This document shows, one piece after another, positions 37,555-45,138 of a stretch of 64,000 bases of DNA. Below the pieces are notes generated by a model. The model made no database searches. It was not told the origin of the DNA and saw only the letters and a program-made list of their open reading frames with translations. The first letter of the stretch is position 1. Each line of letters opens with the position of its first letter. The stretch is taken from the sequence record PV204681. One strand, given 5' to 3'. The DNA comes from Escherichia phage vB_EcoM_JQD51. The position numbers were made by a program, and so were the translations under genes.

Positions 37555-39370
37555 AGGACATCCATTCTTTACGAAGTTCAGAATCATCACCCAACAACAT
37601 TTCAAAGAGTTCTTTCCAATTTTCAGGAAGTTTAACTACGTCGTACACAGGGTTCTGAATCATTTCACGATATTCTGACTTTTCAAGGGAGCCCAATCCC
37701 TTGATGTATCGAATACTATGCTTAGGCAGTGTATCTTTAGCTTCTTCATACTCAGCTACAGTATAAAACCATTTTTGAGTTTTGCCAATTTGTGCAATAA
37801 TTACAGGCGTTTTAACAAAGCGAATACGTCCTTGTTCAAACAATTCAGGCCAATTACTAAAGAAAGCAAGCAAAGCCGGATAAATACTTCCAAGACCGTC
37901 ATGATCAGCATCGGTCATAATTGCAATATTACGATAGTTCGTGTTCTCTGCCTTTTCACCAAGAATAAGACCTGTGATAGCACAGATATCAAAGAGCTCT
38001 TTGTTCTTCATCATATCAGCATATGACATACCCCAGCTATTCATCACCTTACCACGTAATGGGAATCCGCCGTGTAGTTCACGGTCACGAACATCAATGA
38101 GATAACCAATTGCCGAATCACCTTCTGTTAAGAACAATGTCGTATCTGCATCTTTACCACATTGGTTAGCTTTAATATGCTTATGAACCTTAGCTTTAGT
38201 TGCCTTTTTAGCTGCTTTAGTTTCTGCAGCCTTTTCTGCGGCCAATTTACGAGCTAATGCTGCTTCAACAATAGGCATAATCAAGGCTTCGTTTTTAAGA
38301 AGTGCCTGAGCAATTTTCTTAGCATCTAATTGGATATGATTACGAATATCACCATACGTTGACGTTAAACGTTCTTTAGTCTGAGAATCAAAACGCATGT
38401 TGCTCATGTCTCTAATAAACATCAACATTGTGAGACATTCTTTAACACGAGCTTTAGTGACTTCAATACCCTTATATTTCTTTTTAATGCCGGGCAAAAG
38501 ATGTTCGCAGATATCATCCATTACACATTCAACATGATGACCACCATTTTTAGTATGAATGTTATTCACATAAGTTAAATGACGGAAGCCGTCTGGTGAT
38601 GTTGTGAATGCTATAGAGACTTTATCATTTTCTTGAATGATGTTATCTTCACCAAATTGTTTAGCAAATCGTTTAAAATTACCATCAACCTTTTTACCAT
38701 TAAATGTGAACTTGATATCAGGATAAACGACTGCCAATGTTTGAAGTCGGTCTAAAGTAATATCTAAATAAATTTGAGATAAATTATGCTCTTCAAATGA
38801 AGAGAAATCAGGAGTGAAGATTACTTTAGTGCCTTTACCTTTAGATTTCTTAGAAGACCATGATTTGTTTTCCATTCCGTTTGAACAGTTAACAGTGATT
38901 TCATTTTCGCCATCTGACGTGATGCCTGTAAACAACGTAGAGAAGATATTAGTTAAACTACTCCCGACGCCGTTCATACCACCAGTCTTGCGTTCAGAGT
39001 CATCACCAAAGTTACCACCAGCCTTTGGAATAGTCCAGGCTGCTACAGGCCCAGGAATTTGTTCACCTGTTTGGTCGGTAACTAAACCTTGAGGAATACC
39101 ACGTCCGTTATCTTCCACTGAGACTTGATTATTTTTAATTTGCACATCAATTTTATTTGCAAACTTAAATGATGTACGAATAGCTTCATCAACCGAGTTG
39201 TCAATAATCTCATCGATTAATTTAACCAGACCAGGAACATATTCAACTTGTTGATATTTACCAAACAAAAAACGCTCGTGGGCTTCTTTAGCCGAAGATC
39301 CAATATACATACCACTACGTTTCTTAATATGTTCTACATCTGATAATACCTTAATTTCATTTTTAATCAT
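37553..39370 (-). CDS. 39: topoisomerase II large subunit gp39 (GyrB-like), unsplit 39+60 form
   Basis: 605 aa single ORF; GHKL ATPase motif EDNGRGIP; Toprim LTEGDSA; middle promoter upstream. Confidence 0.9.
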   Translation of the reverse strand: MIKNEIKVLSDVEHIKKRSGMYIGSSAKEAHERFLFGKYQQVEYVPGLVKLIDEIIDNSVDEAIRTSFKFANKIDVQIKNNQVSVEDNGRGIPQGLVTDQTGEQIPGPVAAWTIPKAGGNFGDDSERKTGGMNGVGSSLTNIFSTLFTGITSDGENEITVNCSNGMENKSWSSKKSKGKGTKVIFTPDFSSFEEHNLSQIYLDITLDRLQTLAVVYPDIKFTFNGKKVDGNFKRFAKQFGEDNIIQENDKVSIAFTTSPDGFRHLTYVNNIHTKNGGHHVECVMDDICEHLLPGIKKKYKGIEVTKARVKECLTMLMFIRDMSNMRFDSQTKERLTSTYGDIRNHIQLDAKKIAQALLKNEALIMPIVEAALARKLAAEKAAETKAAKKATKAKVHKHIKANQCGKDADTTLFLTEGDSAIGYLIDVRDRELHGGFPLRGKVMNSWGMSYADMMKNKELFDICAITGLILGEKAENTNYRNIAIMTDADHDGLGSIYPALLAFFSNWPELFEQGRIRFVKTPVIIAQIGKTQKWFYTVAEYEEAKDTLPKHSIRYIKGLGSLEKSEYREMIQNPVYDVVKLPENWKELFEMLLGDDSELRKEWMS

Positions 39371-39392
39371 GTTGTCTCCTCGTTATGAAGGT

Positions 39393-39419
39393 ATTCTATC
39401 ATCCGAAATCTAAAGCAAA
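39393..39419 (-). promoter_or_regulatory. MotA-dependent middle promoter for gene 39
   Basis: Minus strand reads TTTGCTTTA (MotA box), 12 nt spacer, TAGAAT. Confidence 0.5.
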
Positions 39420-39435
39420 AAGGGCCGAAGCCCTT
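39405..39435 (-). terminator. terminator-like hairpin upstream of gene 39, overlapping its MotA box
   Basis: Minus-strand AAGGGC-UUCG-GCCCUU then TTTTTGCTTT. Confidence 0.5.
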
Positions 39436-39859
39436 ATTTAAATTTAATTTTCTGAAGTGCATCAATTGCAGCCAAACGCCCTTGTTCACTTTTAACTGTA
39501 ATGACCACATCGCCTGATACGATCACCGAACCGTCAACAAATTCTACAGAGCCTTTTTTGAAATCGACAGCTGTATCTGGTTCTTGAACTTCTTCAAAGA
39601 ATTTAAATTCTGCACCATAAAGCAGAATATCACCTTGCATACTATGAATAGTTCGGCCATAATCGCCTACAGCTTCTACAGCAATCACAGAAACGCCGTA
39701 ACCAATCATCTCTTCCACAATAAAATCTTTGGACAATAAAGTAGTATGCAGATTAGTATTAAGACGTTTACCAGTCGTATTAAGAATTCTCAAGAAATTA
39801 TCTTCCTGTCCTTTGATAATACGATATTTCTTACCAACTTCAAAACCTTTAAAAGCCAT
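39434..39859 (-). CDS. hypothetical protein (141 aa)
   Basis: ORF track; AAGGG SD. Confidence 0.5.
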   Translation of the reverse strand: MAFKGFEVGKKYRIIKGQEDNFLRILNTTGKRLNTNLHTTLLSKDFIVEEMIGYGVSVIAVEAVGDYGRTIHSMQGDILLYGAEFKFFEEVQEPDTAVDFKKGSVEFVDGSVIVSGDVVITVKSEQGRLAAIDALQKIKFK

Positions 39860-39861
39860 AA

Positions 39862-40041
39862 TTAACCCTTCTTAAGTAAGTCGTAAAAACCACCGTTCAC
39901 ATGTTTAGGAGCAGAAACTCGACGAGTAGACAGACGATGACATTCAGGGCAAACATCGTTTTCTCGTTCAGAAATCCTTTTAATTTTTTCATATTCATGA
40001 CCGCAATCTTCAGATTGGCATTTATAGTCGTATAACGGCAT
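39862..40041 (-). CDS. FmdB-family zinc-ribbon protein (59 aa)
   Basis: Hand-read (below ORF-track cutoff): MPLYDYKCQSEDCGHEYEKIKRISERENDVCPECHRLSTRRVSAPKHVNGGFYDLLKKG; CxxC...CxxC; TAAGGAA SD; fits exactly between two tracked ORFs. Confidence 0.5.
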   Translation of the reverse strand: MPLYDYKCQSEDCGHEYEKIKRISERENDVCPECHRLSTRRVSAPKHVNGGFYDLLKKG

Positions 40042-40043
40042 TA

Positions 40044-40454
40044 TTATTCCTTAAAATGTGCTTTCAGCATTTGATACAAAGACCATGCCTGGTCATTATT
40101 TTCGATAGTAATCGTCATCACAGGAAATTCAGACAATTCACCAAGTTCACCAGAATCTTGCTCTTCAGACGCTTGATATGGATTTTCAACTTCGTCAAAG
40201 AACTCTGCTTCATTCGTGGAGAGCCAGATAAAGTTTTCATCAAGGATATCACCGCCTGTTGCGTATCCAACCGTGCCAGTAGATGTTAAAATTTTAGTAG
40301 GACGTCCGAGATGGTCAACATCTAAAATTTTAAAAGGTTCCATGCCAAGACGTCGTGCATAAATCCCATTAACAGTGTGGTCTTTAATAAACTCTTCTTG
40401 GGCACGTTTATCTATAAATTGGTACCATGAGTTAACGCGGAATTTATTAGCCAT
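40044..40454 (-). CDS. hypothetical protein (136 aa)
   Basis: Track ORF (TTG start) trimmed to [11 protein letters not shown]... with GGAAGGAAA SD. Confidence 0.5.
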
Positions 40455-40681
40455 TAGTAAGTTTCCTTCCAATAAGTTGTACCATTTTCAGTGATTTCAC
40501 GGAAGATGCCATAGATAGGCATTTCATCACCAAGTTTTTCGTAAACGTAAACCACTTCGGTGTAGCATAAAAATTCGGTCCAGTTTTTCTGTACAACAAC
40601 TAAATCAGGATTAAACAGAACATCTTCAAACTCATCGATGTTTGAATCAGTAGTTACGTTTTTAATGATTTGACGTTTCAT
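40454..40681 (-). CDS. hypothetical protein (75 aa)
   Basis: Track ORF trimmed to internal ATG with GAGGAGA SD, because a promoter lies inside the longer ORF. Confidence 0.4.
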
Positions 40682-40738
40682 AATATTCTCCTCTTGTTTT
40701 GATAAGTCTATAGTATCATAGACCATAGTTGTTGTACA

Positions 40739-41263
40739 TCATTTTAGCAAAATAAAATCAACTTGTTCTGCCAATGAACGTCTAAACATTAATTGACAAC
40801 TTCCGAGGATGAAATCAGGTGCTTCATAGACCGCGATGTAGTATCCTTTAGCTTTCAAGAGTTCAACATCCACCTGGTCATCAAACCATGCATAAACCGC
40901 GTCAACGCTTTCAAATCCAAAATAGAACCCTTGAGCCCAATCTTCACTCAATTCAAATGTGTACTCAATTCTATGGTATCTTAAGATATTTTGTTCAAGA
41001 AGTTTGTCTTCATTTACTGTAGGACGATTAGGGACATTATAGTTGTCGCCGTGATGGTAGAAGTTACCTGAGAGTATTCCATGCTTATCAAGGAACTCCC
41101 ATGTTTCTTCAGAGTTGTCAGTGCCAGACCAACCGTAAGGTGAGCGAGGTTCTTTATTCCAAGAGGTTTCCCAAATTCTGACGGCTTTACCATCTTCGAT
41201 AGCAATTCCTGGTAATGATTCACGTTGAGTACAAAAACTACGTTCTACTCGGTAAACTAACAT
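40739..41263 (-). CDS. hypothetical protein (174 aa)
   Basis: ORF track; GAGGAGA SD; early promoter upstream. Confidence 0.5.
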   Translation of the reverse strand: MLVYRVERSFCTQRESLPGIAIEDGKAVRIWETSWNKEPRSPYGWSGTDNSEETWEFLDKHGILSGNFYHHGDNYNVPNRPTVNEDKLLEQNILRYHRIEYTFELSEDWAQGFYFGFESVDAVYAWFDDQVDVELLKAKGYYIAVYEAPDFILGSCQLMFRRSLAEQVDFILLK

Positions 41264-41322
41264 ATTATTCTCCTCTGGTTGATATGGTTATAATATCAAA
41301 ACCAGAGGAGAAGTAAACAACT

Positions 41323-41742
41323 TTATGCGAAAGCAGCTGGGCTATATTTTTTAATTTGGAATTCAGGAACTACCATGAACTGACCAGCGAAAACGATGTT
41401 ATAAAGCTTAACACCATCTTCTACCCAACGGTCGCTAATAAATCCGGCGATTTGCTTAGTTTTCCATGGCGTTCCATCAGTTGCCGCAGCAATAGTGAAT
41501 TCATGGTCTTTTTCAACAGAAACTGATCTGCATAGTCCCCATTTGAACGCTTTTTCTTCTGGCTCAATGAACTGGCTTGAGACGTAGCCAATATTACCAT
41601 TAGCATCACGAACTTTAACTTGGTTACGACCAAAAACCGGATCACTCACAGAAAGAACTTCAACCAACTTCCCGGCAACTTTAGAGCGAGAAGCAACAGA
41701 TACATATACGTAATCACCTGTAGAGAGATTTACAATATTCAT
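41323..41742 (-). CDS. hypothetical protein, paralog family member 1 (139 aa)
   Basis: C-terminal GFISDRWVEDGVKLYNIVFAGQFMVV shared with the next two ORFs; TAAGGAA SD. Confidence 0.55.
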   Translation of the reverse strand: MNIVNLSTGDYVYVSVASRSKVAGKLVEVLSVSDPVFGRNQVKVRDANGNIGYVSSQFIEPEEKAFKWGLCRSVSVEKDHEFTIAAATDGTPWKTKQIAGFISDRWVEDGVKLYNIVFAGQFMVVPEFQIKKYSPAAFA

Positions 41743-41751
41743 AATAATTCC

Positions 41752-42207
41752 TTAAGCTTTACGAGGAGACACATAGCGAGTGATTTCGGATTCTTTAACA
41801 ACTCGGAAGTCACCTAAGAATACGATATTGTATAACTTTTCACCATCTTCAACCCATTGGTCACTGATGAAGCCGCACATAATATCAGTTTTGTTTGGAT
41901 AACCATATTCGTCGATGAAATCAAATTCTTTATCAGTCCGGAATTCAACGCCTTTGCAAAGGGCCCATTTGAACTGTACATTAGGTTCAGTAGAAGCAAA
42001 ATGAGCGCTCACATGAGTTTCCAAGAATTTAGGACTTACGTAAGCGTACTGAGTTTCAGTTTTTCCAGAACTAGGAATGATTCGAACTTTAACTTCTTTA
42101 ACACGTCCAGTACCATTAGTACGAAGTCCTACCACTTCAACTAGACGACCTGCAGCTTTAGAACGAGATGCAGACGATACACGCTTAATTTCACCAATAG
42201 TAATCAT
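41752..42207 (-). CDS. hypothetical protein, paralog family member 2 (151 aa)
   Basis: Track ORF trimmed to MITIGEIKRVSSASRSKAAG (aligns with paralog 1 N-terminus); C-terminal GFISDQWVEDGEKLYNIVFLGDFRVV. Confidence 0.55.
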   Translation of the reverse strand: MITIGEIKRVSSASRSKAAGRLVEVVGLRTNGTGRVKEVKVRIIPSSGKTETQYAYVSPKFLETHVSAHFASTEPNVQFKWALCKGVEFRTDKEFDFIDEYGYPNKTDIMCGFISDQWVEDGEKLYNIVFLGDFRVVKESEITRYVSPRKA

Positions 42208-42237
42208 AATTTCTCTCTCTTTGTTTAAATTGAATTC

Positions 42238-42267
42238 ATTATACTCCATCCATCCTTGGATGTACAA
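42238..42267 (-). promoter_or_regulatory. early promoter upstream of paralog 2
   Basis: Plus strand attata -N18- gtacaa. Confidence 0.4.
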
Positions 42268-42269
42268 CA

Positions 42270-42764
42270 TTAATTAAGGATATTAACCACAGCACTACGT
42301 GGAACTACACTAAAATCACCTGCATGAACAACGTTCAGAAGTTCAACACCGTCTTCAATCCACTGATCAGTTACCCATCCATTTACTGGACCTGCGAACG
42401 GACGTCGAATTGAAACATATTTACACAACAAATCAGTAGGCTCAATAGGCTTAATCAGAGTACCGTACATACAAGCGATATCCATATCAATACAGATATC
42501 TTTAACGGGTTCTACTTCTTCAATCAACAGTTCAAAGTCGGTGCTTGGAAGGGCGGTAGTAGAAATTGTACCATATGAATTTTTAATTTCTAAGAATAAC
42601 CAAGGGCCTTCAACTTGTTTGATGAAGTTAACAATAGTGAAACTATTACCTTGAGTGGCACCTAAAATTTCACAAAACTTTTCATAAGCTCGCACTGAAG
42701 CACCATACCAGTTGATTTGTTTTTCATCTTTCAGGATGTAAGTAGCCGTTGTATTGATATTCAT
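42270..42764 (-). CDS. hypothetical protein, paralog family member 3 (164 aa)
   Basis: Track ORF trimmed to internal ATG downstream of its promoter; C-terminal GWVTDQWIEDGVELLNVVHAGDFSVV. Confidence 0.55.
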   Translation of the reverse strand: MNINTTATYILKDEKQINWYGASVRAYEKFCEILGATQGNSFTIVNFIKQVEGPWLFLEIKNSYGTISTTALPSTDFELLIEEVEPVKDICIDMDIACMYGTLIKPIEPTDLLCKYVSIRRPFAGPVNGWVTDQWIEDGVELLNVVHAGDFSVVPRSAVVNILN

Positions 42765-42794
42765 AATGTTTTCCTGTTTGGTTAAGATAGAAAG

Positions 42795-42824
42795 ATTATA
42801 CTCCAACCATCCTTGGTTGTAAAC
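42795..42824 (-). promoter_or_regulatory. early promoter upstream of paralog 3
   Basis: Plus strand attata -N18- gtaaac. Confidence 0.45.
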
Positions 42825-42829
42825 TGGTT

Positions 42830-43507
42830 TTATCGCTGTTTTACACTTAACGGGTCAGGATTCTCAGGGACATCTTCAAGGCCAAGCGCATAACGCTGAG
42901 CATATTTTAACATCAAAATATCTTTAGCACAATCGTGAATACTATCATGGGCAACGAATCCTTTTAGCGTACCCATCGGTAATGGACACATACTTAATCC
43001 TCGTGTCAACGAGTAAGCTTCGATTGCTGTACGAATATCACGTTGAGCCCAGAATTTAACCGGTTCTAATTTATCAGTATCAATATCTGGTTCAAGAACA
43101 CCTTCATCACGATAGAGGTCACGAATCAAATCGACCAAGATCGGGAAGTCAAAGCTCATACCACGGCACCACATCTGTGATTTCCATTGGTCAACTTTAT
43201 TAGCTCGACAATAATCTAAAAAGATTTTAATGCCTTCAAGCGTAGTGACATCGTCTTCAGACGGAGCCAGGTTTTTACGTGCTTCTGCTGATTGTTCTTT
43301 CCACCATTTCATAGTGGATTTAGCGAAAACTCGCTTCCCTTTTTGAGAAGCTAAATTAAATTTAATTCGCTTACCTCGTTGAACAAGTTCTTCAAATGTT
43401 TCAACAACTTCAGGGTCCGAATTATATGCAATAACCGCAAGGTCAATAACAGCCGCTTTTGATGTATTGCCGAATGTTTCAAAATCTATAATAACATCAG
43501 TGCTCAT
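42830..43507 (-). CDS. dexA: exonuclease A (DEDDh 3'-5' exonuclease)
   Basis: 225 aa; N-terminal VIIDFETFG exonuclease motif; adjacent to dda. Confidence 0.85.
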   Translation of the reverse strand: MSTDVIIDFETFGNTSKAAVIDLAVIAYNSDPEVVETFEELVQRGKRIKFNLASQKGKRVFAKSTMKWWKEQSAEARKNLAPSEDDVTTLEGIKIFLDYCRANKVDQWKSQMWCRGMSFDFPILVDLIRDLYRDEGVLEPDIDTDKLEPVKFWAQRDIRTAIEAYSLTRGLSMCPLPMGTLKGFVAHDSIHDCAKDILMLKYAQRYALGLEDVPENPDPLSVKQR

Positions 43508-43516
43508 AATTTTCTC

Positions 43517-44830
43517 TCAAATAAAATGGACGTCAAACCGACCACGAGTTGTGCCAACATACAATAACTGTTTAGCTAATTCTGAATCGGCATAATGGAT
43601 ACACGGTGTATAAACAAAGGCCGTGTCAACAGACATACCCTGGGCCTTATGGAAGGTCGATACTGGTAGTGCCTTCACCTTAGTGAACATACGTTTAGCA
43701 TCCCAGAATTCGCTCCATGGAGCTTTACCACCTTTATTCCAAAATTTGTATGTTTCTGCGGTCTTAGCCAAAAACAAATTGAATTTATAAAGCTCTTCTT
43801 CAGAAGAAATAACCTTTATATCTTCGCGGATGTATTCTTCATCATCCCCATACGTTTCTACTGTAAGATTCCAGTATCGTATCATATATTCGCCTGAAAC
43901 ACCACGTGCTTTAACGAATGTAGACGTTTCTACAGCATCTCGAATACGAACGAATTGACCGTTATTGAAAAGCATTTCGGTCATATTTTTACCATCTAGC
44001 TTATATGTCTTAGTAAACGGCTCTTGTAGAACAATGACTTCGTCTTTAATAAATGGTTTTTCTGTTTCAAGAAGTTTTCGGCGAATAATTGAATTTAACT
44101 TGTCCACCGACTTATTTGTGAATGCCATCATTCGATTTTCGAAAAGGTCTTCAGGAGTTTTAACGACGTTAAAATAGTTCATCATATACGATTTAAGGTC
44201 TGTATATCCGTGAACACCGTGCCCATCAACTACTTTATCGTAAATCCATTTGCCGTTACGAATATCAGTCGCAACATCAATAATTGGTGCATTGCTACGT
44301 TTAACTTCTGTAAGGTTGCATTGCACGAAGTCTTTGTGAGTGAAGAAAGGACTTAGATATGCAGTTGATTCGCCTGGGTCTACCGGACGAATCTGGCATC
44401 GGTCGCCGATTCCAATTACTGTACACCATTTAGGGATACTAGCTAACATTATTTTAAACAGAGAACGGTCGCACATTGACGCTTCATCAAATAACAGTAC
44501 ACGGCACAAGGCTAAGTCTGGAACCTTTTTCTGTTCAAACAATACGTTTTCTTCGTATGTAGTTGGGTTGATTTTAAGAATGCTATGAATAGTCGATGCT
44601 TCTTGACCCGCAAGTTTGCTTAGAACCTTTTTAGCAGCATGTGTAGGGGCTGCTAAAATAATACCTGATTCTCCAGAAGAAATAAGGGCTTCAACGATGA
44701 ATCTAGTAAGGGTTGTTTTACCTGTACCGGCAGGCCCATTAATAGTTACGTGATGTTTCTTTTCTTTAATAGCGTTCATAACAACGTTGAAGGCGTTTTT
44801 CTGGCCTTCAGTCAAATCATCAAATGTCAT
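43517..44830 (-). CDS. dda: Dda SF1 DNA helicase
   Basis: 437 aa; Walker A GPAGTGKTT; N-terminus MTFDDLTEGQKNAFNVV. Confidence 0.9.
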   Translation of the reverse strand: MTFDDLTEGQKNAFNVVMNAIKEKKHHVTINGPAGTGKTTLTRFIVEALISSGESGIILAAPTHAAKKVLSKLAGQEASTIHSILKINPTTYEENVLFEQKKVPDLALCRVLLFDEASMCDRSLFKIMLASIPKWCTVIGIGDRCQIRPVDPGESTAYLSPFFTHKDFVQCNLTEVKRSNAPIIDVATDIRNGKWIYDKVVDGHGVHGYTDLKSYMMNYFNVVKTPEDLFENRMMAFTNKSVDKLNSIIRRKLLETEKPFIKDEVIVLQEPFTKTYKLDGKNMTEMLFNNGQFVRIRDAVETSTFVKARGVSGEYMIRYWNLTVETYGDDEEYIREDIKVISSEEELYKFNLFLAKTAETYKFWNKGGKAPWSEFWDAKRMFTKVKALPVSTFHKAQGMSVDTAFVYTPCIHYADSELAKQLLYVGTTRGRFDVHFI

Positions 44831-45138
44831 CGTAAAGTCCCTGCAATTGGAATACTAACAATACGGCCTGTATCCAGGATTCGTTGATACAATTTTTGCG
44901 TCTCCGCATCTAGTTTAACGTGTTTCATTTCAAGCTTATTAAACCAGAACTTACGCGGAGTTTCGACCATTCTTAGAACTCCCATTTTTAAATCTGTTTT
45001 ATACTGTGTTTTCAGAGTATCGAAAACTTTATCTGCAATATCCTTTCTAAAAAATACCGCAGGACGATGCTCGTCAAGTGGAACCGGGACAGTAAATCCT
45101 TCCATATCTCGATAAACTATTGCATATACATAAACCAT
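44827..45138 (-). CDS. hypothetical protein (103 aa), dda.1 position
   Basis: ORF track; ATGA coupling with dda. Confidence 0.5.
   Translation of the reverse strand: MVYVYAIVYRDMEGFTVPVPLDEHRPAVFFRKDIADKVFDTLKTQYKTDLKMGVLRMVETPRKFWFNKLEMKHVKLDAETQKLYQRILDTGRIVSIPIAGTLR

Follow-up and report, generated by a model that had tools for sequence, protein, structure and literature searches.

Two motB copies and a motB.1 gene with a shared C-terminal module in Escherichia phage vB_EcoM_JQD51

Introduction

Escherichia phage vB_EcoM_JQD51 carries, on the minus strand of a 64,000-nucleotide stretch of sequence record PV204681 (the window), three adjacent open reading frames (ORFs) whose products end in similar sequence. 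The locus raises the questions of what these genes are, whether all three are copies of one another, and whether they act on host defences. A first-pass annotation, made from the letters alone, had described a tandem triplet of paralogues with a conserved C-terminal module, diversified within an accessory region in a way typical of host-interaction or anti-defence genes. We name the three ORF A, ORF B and ORF C in order of coordinate, the reverse of their order of transcription; the span given for them, 41323-42764, is exact, 41323 being the last base of the ORF A stop codon and 42764 the A of the ORF C ATG.

ORF B is the MotB orthologue, ORF A is a second MotB copy and ORF C is the MotB.1 orthologue. 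These named genes have been described in this arrangement before, the phage hardly differs from genomes already deposited, and little at the locus is new: the family is in Pfam and PHROGs, and the genes are annotated as MotB-like in those genomes. The first-pass annotation missed both the named motB family (Pfam PF17613) and the published RB69 arrangement of two motB genes plus motB.1; its observation is confirmed and its interpretation is partly supported. The reading that we consider probable is that of a motB.1-motB-motB' block of early genes in an RB69-like (Mosigvirus) T4-type phage, with ORF B acting like T4 MotB.

Results and discussion

The trio comprises MotB, a second MotB and MotB.1

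All three products score above the curated gathering cutoff of 25 bits for Pfam PF17613 (motB), with 131.7 bits for ORF B (E 2.9e-38), 75.6 bits for ORF A and 35.0 bits for ORF C, the last through its C-terminal part only (residues 98-173 of the 178-amino-acid (aa) ORF). In PHROGs, ORF B (E 5.8e-64) and ORF A (E 6.6e-51) both match phrog_1671 (MotB-like), and ORF C matches phrog_2333 (E 2e-83). ORF B shares 48% identity with T4 MotB (E 2e-44) and 95% with RB69 MotB (P0006). ORF A is 37% identical to T4 MotB and sits where RB69 has NP_861700.1, a protein of 139 aa that lies directly 3' of motB and is annotated as MotB-like. ORF C is 46% identical to intact T4 MotB.1 (P0116) across 99% of its length, and its structural model matches T4 P39415 in Foldseek (E 9.8e-10); because its N-terminus has no KOW block, we count it as MotB.1-type and not as MotB proper.

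The window belongs to a T4-type phage of the genus Mosigvirus, RB69 group, and the DNA at 40700-43600 (2.9 kb) is 99.4% identical to that of vB_EcoM_SA79RD. In the direction of transcription the gene order is dda-dexA-ORF C-ORF B-ORF A-motB.2-like-cef-goF (Table 1), which matches RB69 and is comparable to T4. The trio comprises real paralogues that lie in, and are transcribed with, the early, dispensable region of a T4-type phage (dda-dexA...cef-goF-39), between dexA and cef, so its description as lying in an accessory region stands. RB69 was reported to carry two motB copies, motB.1 and a 29-aa peptide, and the family was divided into MotB proper and MotB.1-like proteins with the same C-terminal domain (CTD) and other N-terminal domains (NTDs) (Patterson-West et al., 2021; PMC7827196, section 3.2). 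The RB69 motB region (NP_861700-NP_861703) has the same gene order and proteins as the window, with motB.1 region DNA about 97% identical; the difference is that the RB69 reference motB.1 is broken (132 + 29 aa), whereas motB.1 in the window is one intact 164-aa ORF.

Compared to T4, ORF B has the same length class, KOW-like NTD plus CTD, basic pI and dexA-cef neighbourhood as MotB, and ORF A has the same two-domain plan. In contrast, the present phage has two full-length copies where T4 has one, and ORF A, which is shorter (139 aa), is nearly devoid of a linker, and its KOW domain no longer carries a net positive charge. The order in T4 is dexA-motB.2-motB.1-motB-cef, whereas motB.2 follows the trio here. 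ORF C has the same NTD and CTD core as T4 MotB.1, but includes an extra 22-residue linker with a IDMDIACMYGTLIKP motif that is missing in the T4 protein.

Two proteins are related over their full length and the third through its C-terminal module

ORFs A and B align by BLASTP across 150 columns at 43% identity (E 3e-31), whereas the alignments of ORF C with ORF A (16/29 identical, E 2e-10) and with ORF B (16/36 identical, E 5e-10) fall within the last ~30-36 residues. Smith-Waterman scores gave z values of 43.5 for A-B, 15.7 for A-C and 14.8 for B-C, and none of 2000 shuffles reached the observed scores, so the shared motif passes the pairwise test of significance. The module common to all three proteins measures ~55 residues and contains the core motif G(F/W/Y)(I/V)(S/T)DQWVEDG.KLYN.VF.G.F.V.PES, present in each; the motif as first written agrees with the alignment residue for residue. 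A profile-profile comparison of MotB with MotB.1 (probability 99.7%, E 3.4e-27) placed its confident stretch in the same last ~55 residues. Across the whole window, a six-frame regular-expression and hidden Markov model (HMM) search found three C-terminal modules and two N-terminal blocks, all at the trio locus.

The N-terminal SRSK.AG.LVEV block is confined to ORFs A and B, as the first-pass annotation had it. The N-terminal 85 residues of ORF C have no detectable similarity to the N-terminus of A or B (z about -1 against shuffles), and the locus therefore consists of two full-length paralogues and one protein that shares the C-terminal module only. The claim of three paralogues accordingly holds for A and B, while ORF C is a domain-swap relative with a predicted LSm-like NTD and a MotB CTD core (PMC12152347). 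Recent gene conversion between the copies was considered and rejected for this genome, in which the DNA repeats within coding regions are short (15-48 nt, 63-89% identical).

Each protein is predicted to be a pair of small beta-barrels

AlphaFold2 models of ORF B and ORF C, made from 39-sequence alignments, predict that each protein consists of two small beta-barrels with a flexible linker between them. The ORF C model has a mean predicted local distance difference test score (pLDDT) of 80, exceeding 90 in the CTD and falling below 50 in the linker. The ORF B model (mean pLDDT 84) comprises an NTD at residues 1-62, a linker, and a CTD at residues 78-151 (pLDDT about 93); its NTD has an SH3-like strand order and is KOW-like. 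ORF A has a KOW-like NTD joined to the C-terminal barrel with almost no linker. The SRSKAAG.LVEV block of A and B is the KOW motif, and the N-terminus of ORF C would be an unrelated LSm-like barrel of the GoF/Frd.2 type, in line with the published grouping of the MotB.1 NTD with GoF and Frd.2 in a predicted LSm-like fold, a bent antiparallel beta-sheet of five strands (Kim et al., 2025; PMC12152347).

The C-terminal motif that drew attention to the locus corresponds in the models to the last three strands of the shared barrel. The modelled CTDs of ORFs B and C are each five-stranded, and a short helix sits between the fourth and fifth strands, as in the SH3-like order; the first hairpin is much longer in the MotB CTD than in the MotB.1 CTD. 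As a minor addition of the present analysis, modelling favours an SH3/Tudor-like barrel over an OB fold for the shared module. A five-stranded barrel with its helix between strands 3 and 4 and with OB folds as the nearest structural neighbours, as expected of a cold-shock-like OB domain, is not what the analysis showed. Resemblance to tandem SH3-like barrel proteins (53BP1 tandem Tudor, Spt5 KOW repeats, KIN17) is one of fold only, at 9-20% identity, and a sequence search of the PDB with ORF B returned no solved relative (best match E 0.92).

The disordered linker of ORF C (IDMDIACMYGTLIKPIEP, residues ~86-107) contains a motif of the form ~(I/V)xDxD(I/V)(A/L)xxYxxP(I/L)xP(L/I), which recurs in many other proteins with a MotB.1-type CTD, placed either N-terminally or in the linker (P0141, P0143, P0163, P0170, P0232-P0241). 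A degenerate version (YVCESNDIRGVV) is found in long-linker MotB proteins. The motif resembles a docking peptide that accompanies the CTD from protein to protein.

The second MotB is a conserved lineage

A tblastn search with ORF A identified 777 phage records with a MotB-family match. An ORF A-type copy (>=80% identical) was present in 207 of these at 87-100% identity, none fell at 60-80%, and the remaining 570 have canonical MotB only (<60%). This gap indicates that ORF A represents a discrete paralogue lineage, which occurs in Mosigvirus and some Tequatrovirus; RB10, for example, has the order dexA-motB.2-motB.1-motB-ORF A-like. Comparison of the window with the RB10 copy gave a dN/dS of 0.14 for ORF A, indicating by its substitution pattern that selection maintains the second MotB lineage, which is found in roughly one in four of the phage records that have MotB.

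The MotB.1-type CTD hardly varies among phages of Escherichia, Klebsiella, Enterobacter, Serratia and Hafnia, in proteins of 143-252 aa with one to three different N-terminal modules. Hybrids that combine a KOW NTD with a MotB.1-type CTD occur in Klebsiella and Enterobacter phages. Copy number among related phages, which the first-pass annotation had proposed to compare, does vary, with one to three CTD-bearing genes per phage; the sequences themselves are conserved rather than fast-evolving, and the suggested diversification was not borne out.

When 1.84 billion representative proteins (listed without source organism) were searched with a profile of the shared module, only 28 clusters matched, two of them spurious repeat proteins. 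The other matches are 43-251 aa long and mostly combine a KOW-type NTD with the shared CTD, the rest being MotB.1-type or fragments; this search yielded no new functional lead. Two chimeric genes from metagenome contigs (recombinant coordinates L005 1373-1894 and L008 37-528) each replace the pair of motB genes with a single one: P0035 joins an ORF B-type NTD to an ORF A-type CTD with cef directly after it, and P0104 joins a T4-type NTD to an ORF A-type CTD. Such genes suggest that the tandem pair can collapse by recombination, and P0104 was seen in no fewer than three samples, which speaks against an artefact of assembly. A further protein, P0243 (43 aa), consists of the first 16 codons of motB.2 joined to the last 27 of motB.1.

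ORF B probably acts like T4 MotB

Going by the title of Son et al. 2021, MotB reportedly compacts the DNA of both host and phage and relieves silencing by H-NS. T4 MotB, named "modifier of transcription" in UniProt, is an abundant early protein (PMC7827196, discussion), produced in large amounts from 1 min after infection (PMC6070864, PMC7827196), and its behaviour is that of a nucleoid-associated protein. It binds unmodified and glucosyl-hydroxymethylated DNA tightly with no detectable specificity and protects whole fragments, as though spreading along the DNA (PMC6070864). It co-purifies with H-NS and StpA through DNA and alters the H-NS footprint (PMC6070864, PMC7827196), and its expression from a plasmid up-regulated 75 host genes, of which roughly one third belong to the H-NS regulon (PMC7827196, abstract). 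Knock-down of T4 motB halves burst size, and MotB is toxic to E. coli (PMC6070864). The host-interaction part of the first-pass interpretation therefore fits, the characterised relative being a host-takeover protein that alters H-NS footprints and derepresses H-NS-silenced genes.

We infer that ORF B does the job of T4 MotB. Judged by the charge values (Table 1), it is the KOW domain of MotB proper, and not the shared module, that holds the positive charge a non-specific DNA binder should have, and ORF B would thus contact DNA mainly through its strongly basic KOW domain. The shared module is acidic to neutral in A, B and C, which makes a role in protein contact or self-association more likely for it than DNA binding. 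ORF A, with its uncharged KOW domain, and the acidic ORF C (pI 4.5) would probably be partners or modulators that bind DNA weakly or not at all, rather than redundant copies. The view of a two-barrel protein with an SH3-like, non-basic module changes which domain to mutate when probing DNA binding.

Two points weigh against this reading, in which DNA binding is assigned to the KOW domain from its charge. The published HHpred analysis describes the CTD as an OB fold that possibly binds DNA (PMC7827196, section 3.1). When motB.1 was deleted from T4, neither burst size nor latent period changed in the laboratory (PMC12152347, section 2.2), so that a modulator role for ORF C is tentative.

A more speculative extension, which we regard as unlikely, is that the shared SH3/Tudor-like barrel serves as a docking or self-association module, possibly recognising the linker motif D.D(I/V)(A/L).xY..P..P, through which MotB, the second MotB and MotB.1 co-assemble on DNA. 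If so, the ratio of basic MotB, uncharged second MotB and acidic MotB.1 in mixed oligomers would tune DNA compaction and H-NS displacement, and ORFs A and C would be built-in modulators instead of spare copies. The outcome proposed for MotB itself, an early relief or remodelling of H-NS-DNA complexes, is like that of T7 gp5.5, T4 Arn and LUZ24 Mip, although these have no sequence or fold relation to MotB. Whereas gp5.5 and Arn contact H-NS directly, MotB binds DNA, and no DNA-independent contact between MotB and H-NS was found (PMC7827196, discussion).

It is quite unlikely, in our assessment, that the locus is instead an anti-defence array, in which arms-race duplication would have given each paralogue its own target to neutralise, be it a host immune system or one variant of a nucleoid or silencing protein. 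Such an array would suit genes of a dispensable, variable early region (PMC6070864, discussion) whose copy number and architecture vary among phages, with several N-terminal domains, and the silencing of foreign DNA by H-NS may be counted as a defence (PMC7827196, discussion); yet arms-race duplication sits poorly with sequences that are conserved instead of diversifying, a nearly invariant MotB.1-type CTD and the low dN/dS of ORF A. On standard hosts, knocking down T4 motB or deleting motB.1 had an effect of no more than twofold (PMC6070864; PMC12152347). NCBIfam and PADLOC scans, which covered the trio and the gene next to it, returned no match (for PADLOC, at E <= 0.01), a weak test in that PADLOC holds defence and not anti-defence proteins, and nothing at the locus points to the anti-defence role that the first-pass annotation had suggested.

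We give similarly little chance to the alternative that the targets of these proteins are RNA or the transcription and translation machinery instead of DNA. Nucleic acid co-purifying with T4 MotB is DNase-sensitive and RNase-resistant, and thus DNA (PMC6070864, section 3.2), and knock-down of motB barely altered the T4 transcriptome (PMC6070864, abstract). In favour of the alternative, the historical isolation of MotB was as part of a complex that included RNA polymerase (PMC6070864, introduction). KOW domains (NusG, Spt5, ribosomal proteins) and LSm-like domains (Hfq) do typically contact RNA or RNA polymerase, and the MotB.1 NTD belongs to the same predicted LSm-like family as GoF, a mutant of which stabilises an mRNA; MotB.1 had no effect in the mRNA reporter assay, in which the form tested may have lacked the C-terminal barrel (PMC12152347).

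It is next to impossible that the motif is shared through chance or composition, or that the ORFs are not real genes. The E values lie between 2e-10 and 3e-31 and the z values, relative to shuffles, at 15-43; there are matches to Pfam and PHROG families, hundreds of conserved homologues, purifying selection, and correctly placed ribosome-binding sites and promoters. We found no point in favour, and chance resemblance is excluded.

MotB.1 is truncated in the T4 and RB69 reference records

The T4 reference motB.1 (NC_000866.4 2292-2340, minus strand; compare window 42330-42372) contains one extra G (attgGaaga) that shifts the reading frame, such that the reference protein (119 aa, 13.8 kDa, UniProt P39415) ends in GWVTDQWIGRWR and, unlike ORF C, has lost the last three strands of the CTD. 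Without the extra G, the ORF runs on to end in WIEDGVELLNVVHAGEYSVVPRSAVVAILN, giving 143 aa. The intact 143-aa form is present in 13 other records (11 of T4/T4T, plus RB55 and RB59), and the gene is broken only in AF158101.6/NC_000866.4. In RB69, the reference motB.1 (NC_004928.1 3377-3873, compared to window 42260-42780) is split into ORFs of 132 and 29 aa by two single-T insertions that are absent from the window and from SA79RD. The "29-aa category 3 peptide" of Patterson-West et al. (2021) is, as judged from these alignments, the severed end of RB69 MotB.1, and the sequence evidence suggests that the truncated reference proteins are artefacts or stock-specific mutations. MotB.1 has been reported as 13.8 kDa (Kim et al., 2025; PMC12152347), which is the predicted size of the 119-aa form; the protein tested may therefore have lacked most of the C-terminal barrel. 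Work on the 119-aa T4 form may thus concern a protein without most of its conserved domain.

Gene starts, promoters and a ribosome-binding-site hairpin

ORF B almost certainly starts at ATG 42207, giving a 151-aa protein that begins MITIGEIKRV... (compare T4 MIINIGELARV and the 151-aa RB69 MotB). The longer ORFs obtained mechanically for B (172 aa, ATG 42270) and C (178 aa) both run through a promoter, the -10 of which translates as "EYN". ORFs B and C each have a ribosome-binding site (RBS) at the correct distance from the starts used here. Database MotB entries of 172 aa, such as SA79RD_011, begin inside the promoter and are probably 21 codons too long.

Both ORF C and ORF B are preceded by promoter-like sequences, P1 and P2 (Table 1). 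P1, at the site of which a promoter is also annotated in SA79RD, would be an early-type sigma-70 promoter as judged by its match to the consensus, and P2 is likewise a putative early-type promoter. The promoters lie in a duplicated block of promoter and 5' leader, whose 27-nt core (TACANCCAAGGATGGNTGGAGTATAAT) occurs at two sites in the window with 0 expected. Dispersed promoter-bearing cassettes are known as the PeSL elements of RB49-type phages; with just two sites in the window, a dispersed mobile cassette is unsupported here. Hairpins in the promoter spacers that precede ORF C and ORF B were no more stable than shuffled sequence (z -0.07 and -0.91, respectively). ORF A starts 9 nt after the ORF B stop codon with its own AAGGAA RBS and no promoter of its own, and is presumably co-transcribed with B.

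At the end of the trio, before the motB.2-like gene, lies a strong hairpin that is matched by none of 200 shuffles (z = -5.66). Its loop contains the -10 of the next promoter-like site, and its 3' arm covers the GAGGAG RBS of the motB.2-like gene. The hairpin is annotated as a terminator in SA79RD, yet no T-run follows it. We infer that it may instead sequester the RBS, such that read-through transcripts hide GAGGAG and transcripts begun inside the hairpin expose it. An RBS-hiding hairpin with an internal promoter is an arrangement known from other T4 genes.

Table 1. Coordinates in the window and properties of the genes, domains and predicted elements at the motB locus.
Feature	Position	Strand	Details
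ORF C, motB.1 orthologue	42270-42764	minus	164 aa; pI 4.5, net -9
ORF C residues 1-85	42510-42764	minus	predicted LSm-like/SH3-like beta domain
ORF C residues 86-107	42444-42509	minus	disordered linker with IDMDIACMYGTLIKP motif
ORF C residues 108-164	42273-42443	minus	MotB-type C-terminal barrel
ORF B, motB orthologue	41752-42207	minus	151 aa; pI 8.8, net +3; KOW NTD pI 10.7, +8; CTD pI 4.85, -3
ORF A, second and shorter motB paralogue	41323-41742	minus	139 aa; pI 7.8, net +1; NTD pI 6.1, net 0
T4 MotB, for comparison			pI 9.2; NTD pI 9.75, +5; CTD pI 7.9, +1
Putative promoter P1, for ORF C	42795-42824	minus	GTTTACA, 17-nt spacer, TATAAT; 11/12 consensus matches
Putative promoter P2, for ORF B	42238-42266	minus	TGTACA, 17-nt spacer, TATAAT; 10/12 consensus matches
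Direct repeat D1, duplicated promoter and 5' leader block	42201-42264 and 42758-42821	minus	64 nt, 75% identical
Hairpin before motB.2-like gene	41268-41312	minus	RNA fold -23.9 kcal/mol
Promoter-like site in hairpin	41290-41317	minus	TTTACT-16-TATTAT
dda helicase	43517-44830	minus
dexA exonuclease	42830-43507	minus
motB.2-like gene	40739-41263	minus
cef	40454-40726	minus
goF	40044-40472	minus	phrog_622
GoF-like gene	39434-39859	minus	phrog_622

Neighbouring genes

An Rfam scan of 39000-45000 returned a single match, to Y_RNA, which was sub-threshold (26.6 bits versus a gathering score of 38, E 0.035); it falls inside the ORF C coding sequence (42525-42615, minus strand), and we take it to be a chance match. 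Downstream of the trio is a second paralogue pair, goF and a GoF-like gene, both of which belong to phrog_622. The GoF-like protein also matches phrog_2333, the family of ORF C, in the N-terminal part of that family (E 6e-4), which fits the published relatedness of the GoF and MotB.1 NTDs. The whole 39.4-42.8 kb stretch has the appearance of a set of shuffled small beta-barrel modules.

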